The position numbers were made by a program, and so were the translations under genes. Under the pieces are notes generated by a model that searched no databases, was not told the origin of the DNA, and saw only the letters and a list, made by a program, of their open reading frames with translations. From positions 104,423-168,422 of the forward strand of contig JBAXAJ010000001.1 in assembly GCA_037142555.1 (NCBI GenBank): DNA of 64,000 nt. Direction: 5' to 3'. The DNA is from Candidatus Shapirobacteria bacterium. Lineage in GTDB: Bacteria; Patescibacteriota; Microgenomatia; UBA12405. Positions 6,039-64,000 of the stretch are shown here, in pieces (position 1 is the stretch's first letter; the number at the start of each line of letters is the position of its first letter).

Positions 6039-6521
6039 ATGTCAAGAAAAGGTCCAAGTAAAATTAGAGAAGTCAATCCTGACACTATCTACAACAGCAT
6101 TATAATTACAAAAATTATAAACTCTACAATGAGAGCTGGCAAAAGAGGTCCAGCTGAAAAGCAAGTTTATGATGCTCTAGAAATTCTTAAAAAAGAATAT
6201 CCAGCAGATGATGTAGTAGCTACCCTAGATAGAGCTCTAGAAAATATCAAACCAAAAGTTGAAGTTCGACCTCGCCGAATTGGTGGTGCTGTCTATCAAG
6301 TTCCAACTCCAGTTCGTGGTAATAGACAAAATTCTCTCGCTATTCGTTGGTTATTAACTTCTGCCCGAGCTAAAGCTAATAAGCAATATCATTCTTTCGC
6401 TGAAAAACTAGCTGCTGAACTCAGTTCTGCTATTAAAAGTGAAGGTGCTTCTGTAACTAAGAGAATGGAAATCGAAAGAATGGCTGATGCTAATAAAGCA
6501 TTTGCTCATTTGAGGTGGTAA
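6039..6521 (+). CDS. rpsG: 30S ribosomal protein S7
   Basis: The translation matches S7 (…RAGKRGPAEKQVYDALEIL…RWLLTSARAK…). Confidence 0.95.
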   Translation: MSRKGPSKIREVNPDTIYNSIIITKIINSTMRAGKRGPAEKQVYDALEILKKEYPADDVVATLDRALENIKPKVEVRPRRIGGAVYQVPTPVRGNRQNSLAIRWLLTSARAKANKQYHSFAEKLAAELSSAIKSEGASVTKRMEIERMADANKAFAHLRW

Positions 6522-35747: not shown

Positions 35748-36632
35748 ATGAAAAAATTAGGAATAGCAAAATTTTTAGTAATGGCTCTAGTTCTAGGCGG
35801 TGGATTAATTTATGGAACTCAAATGGTTCAAAAGAACCAAGAGAACAGAAGTAAAGCCGCTAATGAAATTACAACACAAGATGGACCCTGTGGTTCTACT
35901 GCTAATGTATGTCTTGATGGGAGACCTGCAACTAACATAACTTCAGACGCTGTTAAGAACAACTGGAAATGCCCATATAATGGAGGATTCGCTAGTTGTG
36001 TATTAATTAAACCAGGTGAATGTGGCACTAAAGCATATGGTGATTGTGTTGCTGGAAAATATCAAAATATAAATGGCACTAACACTCAATGGAAATGTGC
36101 TAATGTTACTTGCTCTATCCCAAAAACTGCAATACCAAAAGGACCTTGCGGTTCTACTGCTAATGTATGTCTTAATGGTGGATCTGCAACCAACATAACT
36201 TCAGATGCTGTTAAGAGCAACTGGAAATGCCCATATAATGGAGGATTAGCTAGTTGTATTTTAATTAAACCAGGTAAATGTGGTACTAAGTCGTATGGTG
36301 ATTGTATTAGTGGAACATATCAAAATATAAATGGCACTAACACTCAATGGAAATGTGCTAATGTTACTTGCTCTATGCCAAAAGTAGTTACAGCACCAAA
36401 AGGACCTTGTAGTACTACTGCCAATAAATGTGTTGATGGGAGACCTGCAACCAACATAACTTCAGATGCTGTTAAGAACAACTGGAAATGCCCATATAAT
36501 GGAGGATTCGCTAGTTGTATTTTAATTAAACCAGGCGAATGTGGCATTAAATATGGTAATTGTATTAGTGGAAAATTTGAAAAAATAAACGACATTCAGT
36601 GGAAATGTGCTAATGTTACTTGCTCTCTTTAA
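35748..36632 (+). CDS. Cysteine-rich repeat protein, paralog D (294 aa), built from three ~87-aa tandem repeats
   Basis: Shared N-terminal module. PKGPCGSTANVC…NWKCPYNGG…QWKCANVTCS is repeated three times with ~90% DNA identity. Confidence 0.8.
   Translation: MKKLGIAKFLVMALVLGGGLIYGTQMVQKNQENRSKAANEITTQDGPCGSTANVCLDGRPATNITSDAVKNNWKCPYNGGFASCVLIKPGECGTKAYGDCVAGKYQNINGTNTQWKCANVTCSIPKTAIPKGPCGSTANVCLNGGSATNITSDAVKSNWKCPYNGGLASCILIKPGKCGTKSYGDCISGTYQNINGTNTQWKCANVTCSMPKVVTAPKGPCSTTANKCVDGRPATNITSDAVKNNWKCPYNGGFASCILIKPGECGIKYGNCISGKFEKINDIQWKCANVTCSL
35880..36632 (+). repeat. Three tandem ~260-bp repeats inside paralog D
   Basis: 35883-36140, 36141-36407 and 36408-36629 align base by base with few substitutions. 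Confidence 0.8.
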
Positions 36633-55895: not shown

Positions 55896-55896
55896 A

Positions 55897-56168
55897 GAAA
55901 CTGATAAGCTGGATTTTGTTTAAGGATCATCTATCTATTCTCTCTACCTGAGGCTCTCAAAAGCTAGATATTAACGCCTCATCTTGAGATTTCCACCAGA
56001 AGGATGCTCGTTTCACTTCAGCCGCCGTAGCCTTCTTGCGAAGGTGGCTAGCTTGCTCGTCTCTGTAGCATTGCCCAAAGCTCACGCCCTGGCCCCTAAG
56101 GACTTCTGTGCTTTTTGTGGTCCAGACTTTCCTCCCCGAAAAATCGGGGTAGACCCTTCAACTTCTTT
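55897..56168 (-). ncRNA. rnpB: RNase P RNA (bacterial type A, reduced to ~270 nt)
   Basis: The minus-strand transcript contains GGAGGAAAGUCUGGAC (P4 5' strand), …ACAGAGACGAGCAAGC…, …GAAGUGAAACGAGC…, …CAAGAUGAGGCG…, and ACAAAAUCCAGCUUAUCAG (P4 3' strand, matching E. coli ACAGAACCCGGCUUAUCGG). The 5' AAAGAAGUUGA pairs with the 3' UCAGUUUCUUU to form P1. GC content is locally elevated. Confidence 0.8.
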
Positions 56169-58202: not shown

Positions 58203-58764
58203 TCTAAAACATCTCTTTGTTTCTCAAACTAGACTGAAATTAATAAATACTCTCTTTTATTTACCAAAAGAAATCTATTATGTTCGTCAACTAGTCAGAC
58301 TTCTAGATGAAGAAATCAATTCAGTCAGACGTGAACTTGATAATCTTAAAAAGGCTGACATTGTTGAATCAGAATGGCGAGGTAACAGACTCTATTATTG
58401 GGCTAATCAAAAAAACCAACTCTTTCACGAGCTTCTAGCCTTAGCTAATAAAACTAGTGGATTGGGAGTTAAACTCCAAGACAAAAACAACGATATAGGC
58501 AAAATTAAGCTATTAATTTACAGTTATAAATTCATAACTTGTGAAAAGAAAAACCCTGATGACATTGATTTAATCATTGTCGGCAATGTTTCCTATAAAG
58601 AAGTAGAAAATAATATAAAACAAGAAGAAGAAATTCGTGGTCATGAAATAAATTACATGATAATGGATAAGAACGAATTCCAAATGCGTAAGCAAAAACG
58701 CGATCAATTTATTGTTGACTTCTTTCTCGACTGTCCTGTTGTTATAATAGGTAGTAATGAGTAA
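58186..58764 (+). CDS. Winged-HTH protein with a C-terminal nucleotidyltransferase-like (…DIDLIIVG…) region
   Basis: ArsR-like wHTH (LVRLLDEEINSVRRELDNLKKADIVES). The start could be TTG 58180. Confidence 0.45.
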   Translation: MKAQSSLKHLFVSQTRLKLINTLFYLPKEIYYVRQLVRLLDEEINSVRRELDNLKKADIVESEWRGNRLYYWANQKNQLFHELLALANKTSGLGVKLQDKNNDIGKIKLLIYSYKFITCEKKNPDDIDLIIVGNVSYKEVENNIKQEEEIRGHEINYMIMDKNEFQMRKQKRDQFIVDFFLDCPVVIIGSNE

Positions 58765-58948
58765 AGCAAGAAAAGTAATTAAAACAGGGAACAGTTTAGC
58801 CATAACTATTCCTTCAAAATCAATCAAAGATTTTAATATTAAAGAAGGGGATTTAGTTCAAGCTAAAATAAACAGAAGTAAGGCTTCAATAACCTACGTG
58901 TTTTCTGGTCACCCTCGCCAACTTTCACTAATGGCTCAAAAAAACTAA
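58757..58948 (+). CDS. SpoVT/AbrB-domain (MazE/PemI antitoxin-like) small protein (63 aa)
   Basis: VIKTGNSLAITIPSKSIKDFNIKEGDLV matches the looped-hinge-helix consensus (…GNSxxVxIPK…GxxEGDxV). Confidence 0.55.
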   Translation: MSKARKVIKTGNSLAITIPSKSIKDFNIKEGDLVQAKINRSKASITYVFSGHPRQLSLMAQKN

Positions 58949-58953
58949 AACTA

Positions 58954-60324
58954 ATGAAAAATAGCAGAAAAACTATTAATATTTTTTGGACAATAATCGG
59001 ACTAACTTTTGTTTGTTTGATTATCAACATGCCAAAGATTTTGCCTGTCAAAATTCACCAAGGGCCAATAAATTGGGAACACACTTTTTATAAACCAGAA
59101 TTAAAAATCGGTTCTTTCACAAAAAATCTTGATTTAAAATATGGACTAGATTTAGCCGGTGGTTCCAGTTTAACTTTCGAGGTTGACACTTCTGGGGCTA
59201 AAAAAGAAAACTTAACTCAAGCTCTAGATTCTCTAAAAGGAAACATCGAAAGAAGAGTCAATCTCTTTGGGGTCAGTGAAGCCAATGTTCAATCTTCAAA
59301 AGAAGGGGACAGCAATCGTCTGAAAGTTGATCTTCCAGGAATTGAAAATGTCAACGATGCTATCGGTCTAATCGGTCAAACCGCTCAATTAAGTTTCAAA
59401 GGTGAAGATACAAAAGTGACTAGCGCCACTGATTCAGCTAGTTACAGAGATGCTTTTCCTTTTGACACTGGCATAAATGGTTCTCATTTAACCAGAGCTG
59501 CTGTTGAAATTAACTCTAATAATGGTGAACCAGAAGTAGCTTTGGAATTTAATCCAGAAGGGTCAAAATTATTTGCCAAAGCCACCAAAGATTATCTAGA
59601 CAAAAGAATTGCCATATTTTTAGATGAACAACCAATCACCTCTCCAAAAGTTCAAACAGTAATTACCGATGGTAGGGCAGTAATCAATGGTTCTTTTGAT
59701 TCAAAATCAGCCAAAGAACTTTCAGCTCAACTAAATGCTGGTGCTCTTCCTCTGCCAATTAAATTAATTCATCAAACCCAAATTGGGGCAACTCTAGGGA
59801 AAGATTCAATCGATAAAGGTCTTTTTGCCGGAATTGTTGGTCTAATTTTAGTTTCTCTCTTTATGATCGGAAACTACGGTAAATTAGGTCTAATTGCTGA
59901 TCTTGGTTTAATAATCTATGCTCTAATCACTCTAAGTCTCTATCGTCTGATTCCAGTCACTCTAACTCTTCCAGGCATTGTCGGTTTCATTCTCTCAGTC
60001 GGAATGGCCGTTGACAGTAATATCCTAATTTTTGAACGTATGAAAGAAGAACTTCGAAAAGGTAAGCCTTGGAACATTGCTATGGAACTTGGTTTTGGTC
60101 GAGCTTGGGACTCAATTAAAGATGCTAATGCGTGTACAGTCATCACTGGTCTAATTTTATTCAACCCTTTCAATTGGACTTTCCTAAACACTTCTGGAAT
60201 GGTTCGAGGTTTTGCCGTCACTTTACTTCTCGGAATTTTTATTAGTATTTTCACTGGTGTTTTTGTCACTCGAAATCTACTTCGGGTTCTAGCTAAACCA
60301 TCAAAAAAGGATAACCAACTATGA
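58954..60324 (+). CDS. secD: Protein translocase subunit SecD
   Basis: N-terminal TM, a periplasmic domain (LGLDLAGG), and a C-terminal 5-TM region GLILVSLFMIGNYG…. Confidence 0.85.
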   Translation: MKNSRKTINIFWTIIGLTFVCLIINMPKILPVKIHQGPINWEHTFYKPELKIGSFTKNLDLKYGLDLAGGSSLTFEVDTSGAKKENLTQALDSLKGNIERRVNLFGVSEANVQSSKEGDSNRLKVDLPGIENVNDAIGLIGQTAQLSFKGEDTKVTSATDSASYRDAFPFDTGINGSHLTRAAVEINSNNGEPEVALEFNPEGSKLFAKATKDYLDKRIAIFLDEQPITSPKVQTVITDGRAVINGSFDSKSAKELSAQLNAGALPLPIKLIHQTQIGATLGKDSIDKGLFAGIVGLILVSLFMIGNYGKLGLIADLGLIIYALITLSLYRLIPVTLTLPGIVGFILSVGMAVDSNILIFERMKEELRKGKPWNIAMELGFGRAWDSIKDANACTVITGLILFNPFNWTFLNTSGMVRGFAVTLLLGIFISIFTGVFVTRNLLRVLAKPSKKDNQL

Positions 60325-61187: not shown

Positions 61188-62535
61188 TTTTTTCCAACAA
61201 AATCTCTCTCTCATTTAATTCTGGTTTTTCTTCAACCTCTTTAAATATAGCTTCCAAAACTTCACCAACTTTTCGGCCTGGTTTAATTTTCAAAATTTCC
61301 ATCACATCTTGACCATTAACTTTTAAGTCCTTTATACAAAATGGTTGTTTTTGCACTTCCACAATTCTTTCCTTAAAAAGTTCCCATCTCCAACTACTTT
61401 CTTTAGCCCCACTTCCAAGTCTATCAGCCCGTCTTAGAGCGATCATTTCGTCAATATAATCTAAAGTGACGTTTCGAATAAATCTTCGCACCGCTTTGTC
61501 TGTTTGAGTGGCCTCAGTTGTGAACATATGCCATCTGACTAATTTGAATAATTGGTCTAATTCTTTATTAGAAAATCTTAATCTCTTACCAACAGCAACC
61601 GCAATTCTTGATCCAATTATTTCGTGATTATGAAAAGTTCTAGCTTCTCCATCTCCAAACATTGATCTAGGTTTTCCTACATCGTGTAATAAACTAGCCA
61701 ATTTTGTAATTGGATTTTCAGTCGCACAATTATCCAAAGTTTTTAAATTATGATTCCAAACATCATCAATATGGTGGCCTTTTTGAGCCATTCCAACTCC
61801 ATCTAATAATTCTGGAATAATTTGTTCCAAAAGACCAGAATCTCTCAAAAGTTCAATTCCGGCTGATGGAATAGGCGAGACTAATATTTTAAAAAGTTCA
61901 TCTCTAATCCTTTCCCCAGCCACATTATTAATTAATTTAGCGTTTTTTTGAATTGATTTAAAAGTTTTCTCTTCAATTAAAAATCCTAATTGAGAAGCAA
62001 TTCTAATCGCTCTCATCATTCTCAAAGCATCTTCACCAAATCTTTCATCTGCATCTCCCACAGTTCTGATTAATCTATTTTTTAAATCAACTTGTCCACC
62101 ATACAAATCAGTTATTTTTAATTTACTATCCAAGGCGATTGCATTAATAGTGAAATCTCTTCTTTGCAAATCCTCTTCTAAACTTTTTCCCCATTTAACT
62201 TCATCAGGATGTCTTTTGTCAGAATAGCCTTGTTCAGTTCTAAAAGTTGTTATTTCAAAAATATCATCGCCATCAAGAACACTAAAAGTTCCAAAGACAT
62301 TATTACAAAAACTATTTTTAGGAAATATTTTCCTCATCTCTTCTGGAGTCAAATTGGTGGTGAAATCCCAATCTTTAACCTTTCTCTCCAAAATCAAATC
62401 ACGAACAGCTCCGCCGATAATATAAATTTCAGCGCCATTTTCTTCAAACTTTTTGATTAATTTTTCTACTTTATTAGGGATATTAAATTCCATGCCCAAT
62501 TTTACTACATTTCGAGGATAAAAAAATAAACCCAC
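61174..62535 (-). CDS. cca: CCA-adding enzyme / tRNA nucleotidyltransferase with an HD domain
   Basis: IIGGAVRDLIL…DWDF head domain; HD motif LLHDVGKP. The start is possibly the internal M at 62493. Confidence 0.75.
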   Translation of the reverse strand: MGLFFYPRNVVKLGMEFNIPNKVEKLIKKFEENGAEIYIIGGAVRDLILERKVKDWDFTTNLTPEEMRKIFPKNSFCNNVFGTFSVLDGDDIFEITTFRTEQGYSDKRHPDEVKWGKSLEEDLQRRDFTINAIALDSKLKITDLYGGQVDLKNRLIRTVGDADERFGEDALRMMRAIRIASQLGFLIEEKTFKSIQKNAKLINNVAGERIRDELFKILVSPIPSAGIELLRDSGLLEQIIPELLDGVGMAQKGHHIDDVWNHNLKTLDNCATENPITKLASLLHDVGKPRSMFGDGEARTFHNHEIIGSRIAVAVGKRLRFSNKELDQLFKLVRWHMFTTEATQTDKAVRRFIRNVTLDYIDEMIALRRADRLGSGAKESSWRWELFKERIVEVQKQPFCIKDLKVNGQDVMEILKIKPGRKVGEVLEAIFKEVEEKPELNEREILLEKITSF

Positions 62536-62557
62536 AAAACCAAAAAAACACTAACAA

Positions 62558-62599
62558 CAAAAAACCCAAAAAAGGGAAGAGTTTGGCCACCAAACTCTT
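62558..62599 (-). terminator. Terminator (perfect 10-bp stem aagagtttgg/ccaaactctt) downstream of the tiny-peptide operon; T-rich on both sides, so possibly bidirectional
   Basis: Hairpin at 62577-62599; the minus strand continues cccttttttgggtttttt. Confidence 0.55.
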
Positions 62600-62638
62600 A
62601 TTTTTTTGATTTTTTGTCTCTTTTTCAAGTGAATATTT

Positions 62639-62749
62639 TCAGAAAGTAATTACATGAGTAATAAACAAAAGTGCAAACACTATTACAATAACTACAACAA
62701 CGATTACAGCAATTGTAACCCATGGAATAGGGCTAGGAGGACAATACAT
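62639..62749 (-). CDS. Tiny hydrophobic peptide (36 aa) MYCPPSPIPWVTIAVIVVVVIVIVFALLFITHVITF
   Basis: AAGGAGGGG Shine-Dalgarno 5 nt before the ATG; a single TM; a terminator follows. Confidence 0.5.
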   Translation of the reverse strand: MYCPPSPIPWVTIAVIVVVVIVIVFALLFITHVITF

Positions 62750-62786
62750 GTCAACCCCTCCTTTCTTCTTTTCTTTTTAATTTTTA

Positions 62787-62879
62787 TTAATTAATTAATA
62801 TAATAATCGCTATTATAGAAATCAATAACAACACCAAATACAACATCCCAGATTTTACAAACTTTCTATCTCTTTCCAT
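62787..62879 (-). CDS. Tiny hydrophobic peptide (30 aa) MERDRKFVKSGMLYLVLLLISIIAIIILIN
   Basis: AAGGAGGAG Shine-Dalgarno 5 nt before the ATG; a single TM. Confidence 0.5.
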   Translation of the reverse strand: MERDRKFVKSGMLYLVLLLISIIAIIILIN

Positions 62880-62939
62880 AACAACTCCTCCTTCTTTCTA
62901 TTTTTTAGTTTTGTGAGTTAAAGTGCAACAAACTAACCT

Positions 62940-62968
62940 ATAATACTCCTAACTATACTAAAAGTCAA
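62940..62968 (-). promoter_or_regulatory. Putative promoter TTGACT-17-TATTAT (minus strand) for the tiny-peptide operon
   Basis: Reverse complement of 62940-62968: ttgact tttagtatagttaggag tattat. Confidence 0.45.
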
Positions 62969-62996
62969 TCTATCAGTGTAAAATTAAATCTATCTC

Positions 62997-64000
62997 ATGA
63001 ATCAATTGCAAATCATTTTAAAATCAAAAAAAATCATTGAAAGGGGAATAATCGAAGCCGATTTTCTAGAATTATTATTAACCAATCGTGGCATCACCAA
63101 ATCCAAAACAGCTGAATTTTTAAAACCAAACAATCCCAAAAAACTTGAAGCCAAAGATTTTGGAGTCAACCAAAAACAATTAGATTTGGCTGTCAATCGA
63201 ATTAAACAAGCCATCGATAATCAAGAAAATGTCCTAATATACGGCGATTATGATGTTGATGGTATAACTTCAACTGCTGTTCTTTGGAAATCTCTAAGAA
63301 AAAATGGTCTAAAAGTCATGCCTTTCATTCCCGATCGAGAACACGACGGCTACGGCATCAAAGCCAAATCATTTTTTAAGTTTGAAGAGGAAAGAGCCAC
63401 TAAATTCTCTTTATTAATCACTGTCGATAACGGCATTGTCGCCAACAAAGAAATCCAAAAAATCATCGACACTGGGGTTGATGTAATCATCACCGATCAC
63501 CACCTTCCAACCGAATCTTTGCCAAATTGTCTTGCCTGCGTCCATTCAACTGCCTTTTCTGGTTGTACTCTAGCCTGGCTTCTAGCTCTTCAATTCGATT
63601 CTGAAGCTGATCTAGGATTGGCCGCTCTCGGTGCCATTGCTGACTGTATGCCTCTAGTTGGGATCAATCGCAGCATTGTGGTCCATGGCATCCAAGAATT
63701 AAGATTAAACCCTTCTCCAGGCATGAAAAAATTAATGCAAGTCAGTGGTTCTAAACAAGAATCACTTTCTGCTTATGATCTAGGCTACATTCTTGGCCCT
63801 CGAATCAACGCTGTTGGTCGTCTTTCCAACCCAACCGATGCTCTGCGACTTCTATGCAGTCCAACTCTGGTCCAAGCCGCCAAATATGCCCAAGTTCTAG
63901 ACGATCACAACAAAGACCGTCAAATTCTTCAAAAAGACAGTTTGGAAGTTGCTGAGAAAAATATTTTCAACAACTCCGACAAATTAGTCTTTATTGCTGA
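62997..64000 (+). CDS. recJ: Single-stranded-DNA-specific exonuclease RecJ (3' end lies outside the window)
   Basis: DHH-family motifs VLIYGDYDVDGITS, …DNG… and ITDHH; the frame stays open to the window end. It is not in the ORF track because there is no stop. Confidence 0.8.
   Translation, partial: MNQLQIILKSKKIIERGIIEADFLELLLTNRGITKSKTAEFLKPNNPKKLEAKDFGVNQKQLDLAVNRIKQAIDNQENVLIYGDYDVDGITSTAVLWKSLRKNGLKVMPFIPDREHDGYGIKAKSFFKFEEERATKFSLLITVDNGIVANKEIQKIIDTGVDVIITDHHLPTESLPNCLACVHSTAFSGCTLAWLLALQFDSEADLGLAALGAIADCMPLVGINRSIVVHGIQELRLNPSPGMKKLMQVSGSKQESLSAYDLGYILGPRINAVGRLSNPTDALRLLCSPTLVQAAKYAQVLDDHNKDRQILQKDSLEVAEKNIFNNSDKLVFIA

Follow-up and report, generated by a model that had tools for sequence, protein, structure and literature searches.

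Between the divergent genes recJ (plus strand) and cca (minus strand) of a Candidatus Shapirobacteria bacterium lies a minus-strand unit of two tiny open reading frames (ORFs), pep1 and pep2, each of which is preceded by a consensus Shine-Dalgarno (SD) site. The unit is located within a stretch of 64,000 nt of contig JBAXAJ010000001.1 (positions 104,423 to 168,422 of the forward strand), the whole of which is termed the window here. On balance, and with some reserve, we favour the view that the unit encodes a co-transcribed and efficiently translated pair of single-span membrane micropeptides, which would be carried as lineage-specific cargo in the slot between recJ and cca. The non-random signal of the locus is its ribosome-binding sites (RBSs), which are far beyond what chance would produce. 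Transcription and translation of the cassette, membrane insertion of its products and any function that these may have are what we infer from the sequence of the unit and from its comparison with related loci.

Architecture of the two-ORF unit

The unit opens with a sigma-70-like promoter (62940-62968, on the minus strand like all elements of the unit), in which TTGACT (62968-62963) and TATTAT (62945-62940) are separated by a 17-nt spacer and from which the transcription start site is predicted to lie at about 62933. The first SD site, AAGGAGGAG (62885-62893), is spaced by 5 nt (TTGTT) from the ATG of pep1 at 62879, and the pep1 coding sequence (62787-62879), which specifies the 30-aa peptide MERDRKFVKSGMLYLVLLLISIIAIIILIN, ends with a double stop, TAATAA. 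The second SD site, AAGGAGGGG (62755-62763), is reached 37 nt further on and is likewise spaced by 5 nt (TTGAC) from an ATG, located at 62749, which begins the pep2 coding sequence (62639-62749; 36 aa, MYCPPSPIPWVTIAVIVVVVIVIVFALLFITHVITF; stop TGA). Following an A-rich stretch, which places the pep2 stop codon 40 nt from the next element, the unit closes with an intrinsic-terminator-like hairpin and tail (62558-62599) comprising a perfect 10-bp stem with a 3-nt loop (62599-62577) and then CCCTTTTTTGGGTTTTTT. The tail has the form CCC-T6-GGG-T6, in which the CCC separates the T-run from the stem. The hairpin, which is also present in the centroid fold, is palindromic with T-runs on both strands and therefore scores as a bidirectional terminator.

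An earlier note on this DNA, drawn up from the letters alone, had described this arrangement, and the promoter with its 17-nt spacer, the two SD-N5-ATG modules, the 30- and 36-aa ORFs and the 10-bp hairpin were all confirmed base for base. The divergent recJ and cca flanks that it reported also hold, with recJ starting at 62997 (+) and cca most likely at ATG 62493 (-). The left flank of the cassette is formed by the recJ start codon together with a conserved upstream sequence, AGTGTAAAAT (62975-62999, +), and on the other side the conserved element of cca itself, TAGTAAAAT-N5-ATG (62491-62507, -), lies outside the cassette. The cassette as a whole spans about 460 nt (62515-62974, -) and represents an insertion relative to the empty recJ/cca site of a related locus, L162.

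One transmembrane (TM) helix is predicted in each peptide, and the hydrophobic helix that the earlier note had seen in both products is borne out by strongly negative values of the summed Hessa apparent free energy (dGapp), which reaches -5.5 kcal/mol for pep1 and -6.2 kcal/mol for pep2 in the best 19-residue window. In pep1, which is rich in Leu and Ile, charge is confined to the first 10 residues, where the N-terminus carries a net charge of +2, so that an N-in orientation is predicted. The N-terminus of pep2 is uncharged and Pro-rich, its TM helix is rich in Val and Ile, and the whole peptide contains no charged residue except for one His. The C-termini read ...IIILIN in pep1 and ...ITHVITF in pep2. 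Second codon positions are 58-59% T in both ORFs, and a trinucleotide-repeat origin of the poly-Val/Ile segment was not detected by TRF.

We suggest that transcription would proceed leftward from the sigma-70-like promoter, which is sited where relatives have the promoter of a cargo gene, and would yield a bicistronic mRNA of ~360 nt ending at the hairpin terminator. The two near-identical, consensus-strength RBSs would then drive synthesis of the 30-aa and 36-aa peptides, which would enter the cytoplasmic membrane, with pep1 inserting N-in by virtue of its +2 N-terminus and pep2 presenting an uncharged, Pro-rich N-terminus. Once in the membrane, the peptides may serve, probably in concert, as small accessory or modulator peptides that reside there.

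Bacterial single-TM small proteins of less than 50 aa form a class that is typified by E. coli YohP, YkgR, AcrZ, KdpF and CydX. The pair resembles this class in the length of its products (30-36 aa), in the provision of an SD site for each ORF and in products made up essentially of a short polar N-terminus and a single TM helix, and shares with it the tendency to be missed routinely by gene callers and to reside in intergenic gaps. It differs in that neither peptide has a sequence relative, that two unrelated peptides are placed in one operon, that no partner complex is encoded nearby (the adjoining genes being recJ and cca), and that the host belongs to the candidate phyla radiation (CPR) and leaves most of its genes without an SD. 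Overall, the locus looks real and appears to work like generic bacterial single-TM small proteins, being homolog-less and worth annotating, and not surprising.

Ribosome-binding sites against the background of the window

No SD-like motif precedes 44 of the 58 long ORFs of the window (76%). Clear SD sites of the AGGAG/AGGAGG class are found ahead of the genes for RpoC, EF-Tu, RpoA, L13 and RNase Y, as well as of one 137-aa ORF that has no Pfam match, and a weaker GAGG site precedes the gene for ribosomal protein S12; outside the unit, the SD sites of the window thus lie mostly ahead of core expression genes, such as those for EF-Tu and RpoA. The hexamer AGGAGG occurs 11 times in 128 kb (both strands) and is correctly spaced ahead of a sizeable ORF only at rpoC and at the pep1/pep2 pair, and the two longest SD matches of the 64-kb window are the two within the recJ-cca gap. 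Exactly two copies of the 12-mer AAGGAGGRGTTG are present in the window, where 0.64 would be expected even when one mismatch is allowed, and none in 165 related loci. The SD-bearing genes of the window are located at 1834, 16966, 30467, 31873 and 42264.

In 2.24 Mb of sequence, which comprises both strands of the window and of 160 related loci, a strong SD is followed by a start codon 566 times; only three of these sites lead into a strongly hydrophobic ORF of 18-60 aa, and pep1 and pep2 are two of the three. Moreover, the 30-nt initiation regions of pep1 and pep2 are 77% identical (p ~5e-4 versus shuffles), and the similarity of the coding parts is non-significant (p = 0.13). On the grounds of two consensus SDs and a duplicated initiation region, we argue that at least the expression signals of pep1 and pep2 have been selected, or else were inherited as a unit. 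Both the rarity of such SD sites and the dGapp values favour the original proposal of a self-contained unit in which two tiny single-TM ORFs are each driven by an SD. Because most genes of this genome are without an SD, a consensus SD also provides a good flag for small genes that have been missed. The third SD-led, strongly hydrophobic small ORF, which encodes 55 aa, begins with a TTG after an AGGAGG at position 6089 (+) of locus L074, within ~1.1 Mb of related Microgenomates DNA.

The recJ/cca gap in Shapirobacteria and its relatives

By the relatives of its CCA enzyme, the window belongs to Candidatus Shapirobacteria (Microgenomates, CPR). The divergent arrangement of recJ and cca is kept across Microgenomates, and the two genes abut in distant relatives. 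As judged by three flanking genes, the closest relatives of the window are the loci L162 and L083 (CCA 83-86%, RecJ 81-84%, SecF 84%). The site is empty in L162, where the gap is 53 nt (L162 2200-2251) and reads ...TTTTACACT-TTTTGTTT-CGTAAATGTAGTAAAATTGGGCATG, such that 8 nt in L162 stand against 460 nt (62974-62515) in the window. The exact boundaries of the cassette follow from the flanks that the window has in common with L162 (left, GAGATAG..TTAATTTTACACT; right, CG(T)AAATGTAGTAAAATTGGGCATGG), and at the recJ side a 23-nt sequence, GAGATAG..TTAATTTTACACTG, is common to the window, L083 and L162. The slot of L083 is occupied by an unrelated 129-aa ORF (L083 2476-2865). A short stretch following the terminator is weakly similar between the window and L083 (p ~0.006), with the L083 tail being non-coding, and none of 160 related loci resembles the cassette in nucleotide sequence. 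A 16-nt direct repeat (window 62959-62994; minus strand GATAGATTTAATTTTA and GATAGATTGACTTTTA) spans the left junction of the cassette, the -35 box being provided by one copy and the conserved flank near recJ containing the second, and could be a junction duplication or due to chance.

In most Shapirobacteria relatives, the gap harbours a gene for an RRM RNA-binding protein (PF00076) of 86-126 aa, which is co-oriented with cca and is equipped with its own promoter, an AAGGAG SD and often its own hairpin terminator ahead of the cca promoter (for example, L165 2218-2484). Other contents include a 92-aa ORF on the opposite strand (L006/L087), a 101-aa ORF, extra ORFs of 120-140 aa and, in L009, an ORF of 827 aa, and a slot with nothing in it is also seen in L003, L007, L019, L085 and L086. 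Judged from these comparisons, the recJ/cca gap of Shapirobacteria is a slot for cargo of hypervariable content. That the slots of relatives hold other small genes with a promoter and an SD supports the assignment of pep1 and pep2 as slot cargo. The pep1/pep2 cassette is similar to the RRM cassette in its slot, its orientation and the position of its promoter, as well as in having an SD (AAGGAG in the RRM cassette) and a terminator before the cca promoter (often present in the RRM cassette). In contrast, the product differs entirely, since the RRM protein (PF00076, 86-126 aa) is soluble, and an nhmmer profile of 52 RRM cassettes revealed no residual nucleotide homology to the pep1/pep2 cassette (best E = 0.15). 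There is no RRM gene in all 64 kb of the window.

The cassette promoter is found at the same position as the RRM cargo promoter in relatives. Homology between the two promoters (AGTTAGGAGTATTAT versus AGTTAGGGATATAAT) was considered and set aside, because in the nhmmer comparison there is no residual homology to the RRM cassette, and the resemblance is only positional or anecdotal. Beside secD, a gene for a MazE/AbrB-like protein (PF04014) of 62-63 aa is present in related loci (L162 5812-6003, L163 6069-6257 and L165 6228-6338); a counterpart in the window, if it has one, would be expected near 58764-58954.

If translated, pep1 and pep2 would add two more unannotated membrane micropeptides, in an uncultivated CPR lineage whose small proteins are essentially unexplored, which is a modest gain taken alone. 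The more useful by-product is the context, in which the gap behaves like a small hot spot where close relatives exchange cargo genes that bring their own promoter. The window shows how orphan micropeptide genes appear, and an empty-site comparison is available for their study. We attach a limited probability to the idea that the unit is a newly originated two-gene micropeptide operon, which may have arisen de novo, or been captured recently and then internally duplicated, in the promoter-equipped slot after loss of the RRM gene. Were this the case, it would constitute a datable and testable instance of micropeptide gene birth in an ultra-reduced CPR genome, the relatives of which keep both the empty site and alternative cargos.

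Neither pep1 nor pep2 was on record in an exact look-up of an index of 153 billion genes. A phmmer search with pep2 against 1.84 billion representatives gave 0 matches at E <= 0.001, and an artificial fusion of pep1 and pep2 gave 0 matches at E <= 10 against 5.8 billion proteins. Similarly, the back-translated pattern MYCPPSPIPW from pep2 had 0 matches in viral contigs, and blastn against phage genomes returned nothing. With both peptides as tblastn queries, the first 80 related loci yielded only low-complexity noise, all of which fell outside the slot, and the 64-kb window itself also gave low-complexity noise only, with no paralogs. The 80 metagenome loci were examined by listing slot cargo and ORFs, instead of by peptide tblastn, and contained no comparable tiny ORFs in the slot. 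Searches of Pfam, NCBIfam, PHROGs and PADLOC yielded nothing above noise, with the best match, to HokA, having an E of 0.67 and 10 bits versus a cut-off of 89.

The earlier note had proposed that a lack of conservation of the ORFs in relatives would speak against them. Formally, the ORFs are indeed unconserved, and no relative's ORF was found with which to compare them at the protein level, but this outcome is uninformative rather than negative, because the whole 460-bp cassette is missing from every relative, as opposed to its nucleotides being kept with decayed ORFs.

Several observations weigh against a translated pair of membrane micropeptides. Although the cassette promoter is the best match (10/12) in a 3-kb scan, sites with a match of at least 10/12 number 38 in the window, compared to ~31 expected, and the match alone is therefore non-significant. 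At this base composition, frames that stay open for 30-36 codons are nothing unusual, and the composition of the coding strand (39.5% T, 9% C) favours hydrophobic ORFs by chance. Both of the closest relatives, L162 and L083, are without the cassette, and the public gene call for ENA contig ERZ27300156:k141_574966, to which the window belongs, leaves the recJ-cca gap empty. No search recovered a homolog of either peptide, and purifying selection on the ORFs cannot be shown because there is neither a homolog nor a closer strain. In clustering at 90%, the CCA protein stands by itself as the only member of its cluster, and its next relative in the databases is at 86% CCA identity.

These features also bear on whether pep1 and pep2 are young proto-genes without a selected function, that is, T-rich filler behind the slot promoter after loss or replacement of the RRM gene, which may nevertheless be translated. 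We regard this as rather unlikely, and the de novo gene birth in progress that it would represent is to be viewed with the same caution. T-rich sequences readily encode TM segments, as reported for de novo emerging proto-genes in yeast (Vakirlis et al. 2020, PMC7005711), and the pair is reminiscent of those proto-genes in its orphan status, which is total, its T-rich coding strand (39.5% T, 9% C) and its TM-dominated products. It is also reminiscent of them in its location within a non-genic slot, the content of which turns over fast and for which a relative keeps the 'before' state, given that the closest relatives are without the cassette and one has the empty site. Between the two ORFs, the similarity of the coding parts is not significant, which is compatible with such an origin. 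However, the pair is bacterial, and two consensus SDs together with a duplicated initiation region are not expected from random T-rich DNA. In a window where 76% of long ORFs are without an SD, two 9-nt consensus SDs with identical spacing would be very unlikely to arise without selection or inheritance, and the duplication of the initiation region implies the copying of a functional unit.

Toxin, leader and read-through alternatives

The earlier note drew an analogy to type I toxins, and a type I toxin-like module, in which one or both peptides would damage or depolarise the membrane and would be silenced by an unrecognised small RNA (sRNA) or by mRNA structure, is a possibility that we consider unlikely. 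Both peptides are shorter than 60 aa and consist almost wholly of one TM helix, and their distribution is narrow. Moreover, tandem small hydrophobic ORFs within an intergenic region of variable length resemble zorO/zorP, for which the length of the yehI-yehL gap differs between two E. coli strains (0.3 kb versus 1.2 kb; Fozo et al. 2010, PMC2887945). The pep2 SD can additionally pair with the CCUCCU of codons 4-5 (Pro-Pro) of its own ORF, and toxin mRNAs are characterised by SD/anti-SD pairing (T1TAdb, PMC8594479). This pairing amounts to -12.9 kcal/mol but is not above that of shuffled sequences (z only -1.05), and the initiation region of pep1 is unstructured, with a local fold of -0.5 kcal/mol that leaves its RBS fully open.

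A plus-strand unit of promoter plus terminator overlapping the ORFs was not detected in a consensus scan, which an sRNA could escape. The plus strand has one weak promoter (9/12, 62662-62689), with no downstream terminator before 63744, and the shared hairpin, the sole terminator signal on that strand, is situated upstream of this weak antisense promoter. The C-terminal cluster of charged or bulky residues, which served as a criterion in searches for such toxins (Fozo et al. 2010, PMC2887945), is absent from both peptides. Models of Hok, Fst, Ldr, Ibs, TisB, ShoB, TxpA or similar families are not matched, the HokA score of 10 bits against 89 being the best obtained, and the 64-kb window contains no paralogs. 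A classical type I toxin is disfavoured, because initiation at pep1 appears efficient and unsequestered and because the consensus scan gave no antitoxin signal, and the peptides are probably not an antisense-controlled toxin. While the pair bears a superficial likeness to zorO/zorP, ibs and ldr (Fozo et al. 2010, PMC2887945) in the tandem arrangement of tiny hydrophobic ORFs, the expanded gap and a very narrow distribution, it is distinct from these in that no antitoxin sRNA is predicted, no polar C-terminal tail is present and no toxin-family homology is seen. Furthermore, neither ORF is a copy of the other, their similarity being limited to the RBS regions, and the consensus RBS of the first ORF is open.

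The likeness to leaderless bacteriocins, to which the earlier note had also pointed, does not hold, as the peptides are neither cationic nor amphipathic and no immunity or transporter genes are present nearby. A leaderless or two-peptide bacteriocin was rejected on these features: the neighbours are recJ, cca, secF and secD, the charge of pep1 is N-terminal only, and pep2 is uncharged but for one His.

The cassette precedes cca and shares its orientation, which raises the question of whether it instead gives rise to a non-coding RNA or to an extended 5' leader for cca, in which the ORFs would be untranslated and the GGAGG motifs would have another purpose. Some read-through of the terminator is plausible given the CCC between the stem and the T-run, and the ORFs are ignored by the gene caller. 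Nevertheless, this scenario appears very improbable, as it leaves the twice-seen pattern of SD, ATG and TM ORF unexplained. In addition, Rfam at a permissive threshold returned noise only and no family, and the predicted transcript fold is no more stable than that of shuffled sequences (z = -0.6). The promoter-like element of cca, TAGTAAAAT-N5-ATG, comprises a -10 box 5 nt ahead of the start codon, is kept with little or no change in L081, L082, L162, L163, L165 and L002, and is present in all states of the slot, even where this is empty. As suggested by this conservation, cca probably has its own promoter of the leaderless type, and its mRNA is probably leaderless. Because the promoter-like element is conserved in every slot state, cca would be independent of the cassette, and we suggest that the downstream cca gene retains its own promoter, outside cassette control.

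By analogy to the ilv and leu systems, pep1 and pep2 might alternatively form a leader-peptide attenuator of cca, such that ribosome stalling on Val, Ile and Leu codons would reflect how much functional tRNA is available and thereby modulate hairpin termination. The extreme richness of pep2 in Val and Ile and of pep1 in Leu and Ile, as well as the location of the terminator between the ORFs and cca, a gene for tRNA maturation, would be in keeping with this, although any TM helix is rich in Val, Ile and Leu. We rejected attenuation, which we deem highly improbable, on the basis of three features. The pep2 stop lies 40 nt ahead of the hairpin, with an A-rich, unstructured stretch between them. 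Pairing of an antiterminator with the hairpin arms was found neither in the fold nor on reading the sequence. Lastly, the cca promoter element is located downstream of the terminator, and relatives regulate cca without such a leader.

Downstream of its TGA, the pep2 frame (62483-62749, -, from the pep2 ATG) continues for 51 sense codons, encoding a polar loop followed by another hydrophobic segment, and ends at a TAA that overlaps the cca start. By this extension, pep2 could be the N-terminal part of an 88-aa protein with two TM helices, which would be produced by TGA read-through or recoding or would have been interrupted recently by a nonsense mutation, an interpretation to which we give next to no credence, the extension being in our judgement an artefact of the T-rich tail of the terminator. 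TGA terminates 5 of the 58 long ORFs of the window, including secD and cca, in agreement with code 11, and an alternative genetic code or TGA read-through was therefore rejected, TGA being a genuine stop codon in this genome. The extension furthermore crosses the perfect hairpin and its T-tracts, where T-richness trivially gives Phe and Leu codons, and the equivalent tail in L083 is non-coding. A pair of membrane micropeptides carried as slot cargo remains the reading that we prefer.

Two further features of the window lie outside the recJ/cca gap. An RNase P RNA is encoded at 55896-56166 (-), for which the best model is the archaeal RF00373 (115.5 bits, full-length 1-288) and not a bacterial one. 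The ORF at 35748-36632 contains three identical promoter-like sequences, TTAAGA-17-TATAAT, at 35953, 36211 and 36472 (+), and since these identical sites are ~260 nt apart, we ascribe them to a tandem repeat of ~86 aa in the protein that this ORF encodes.

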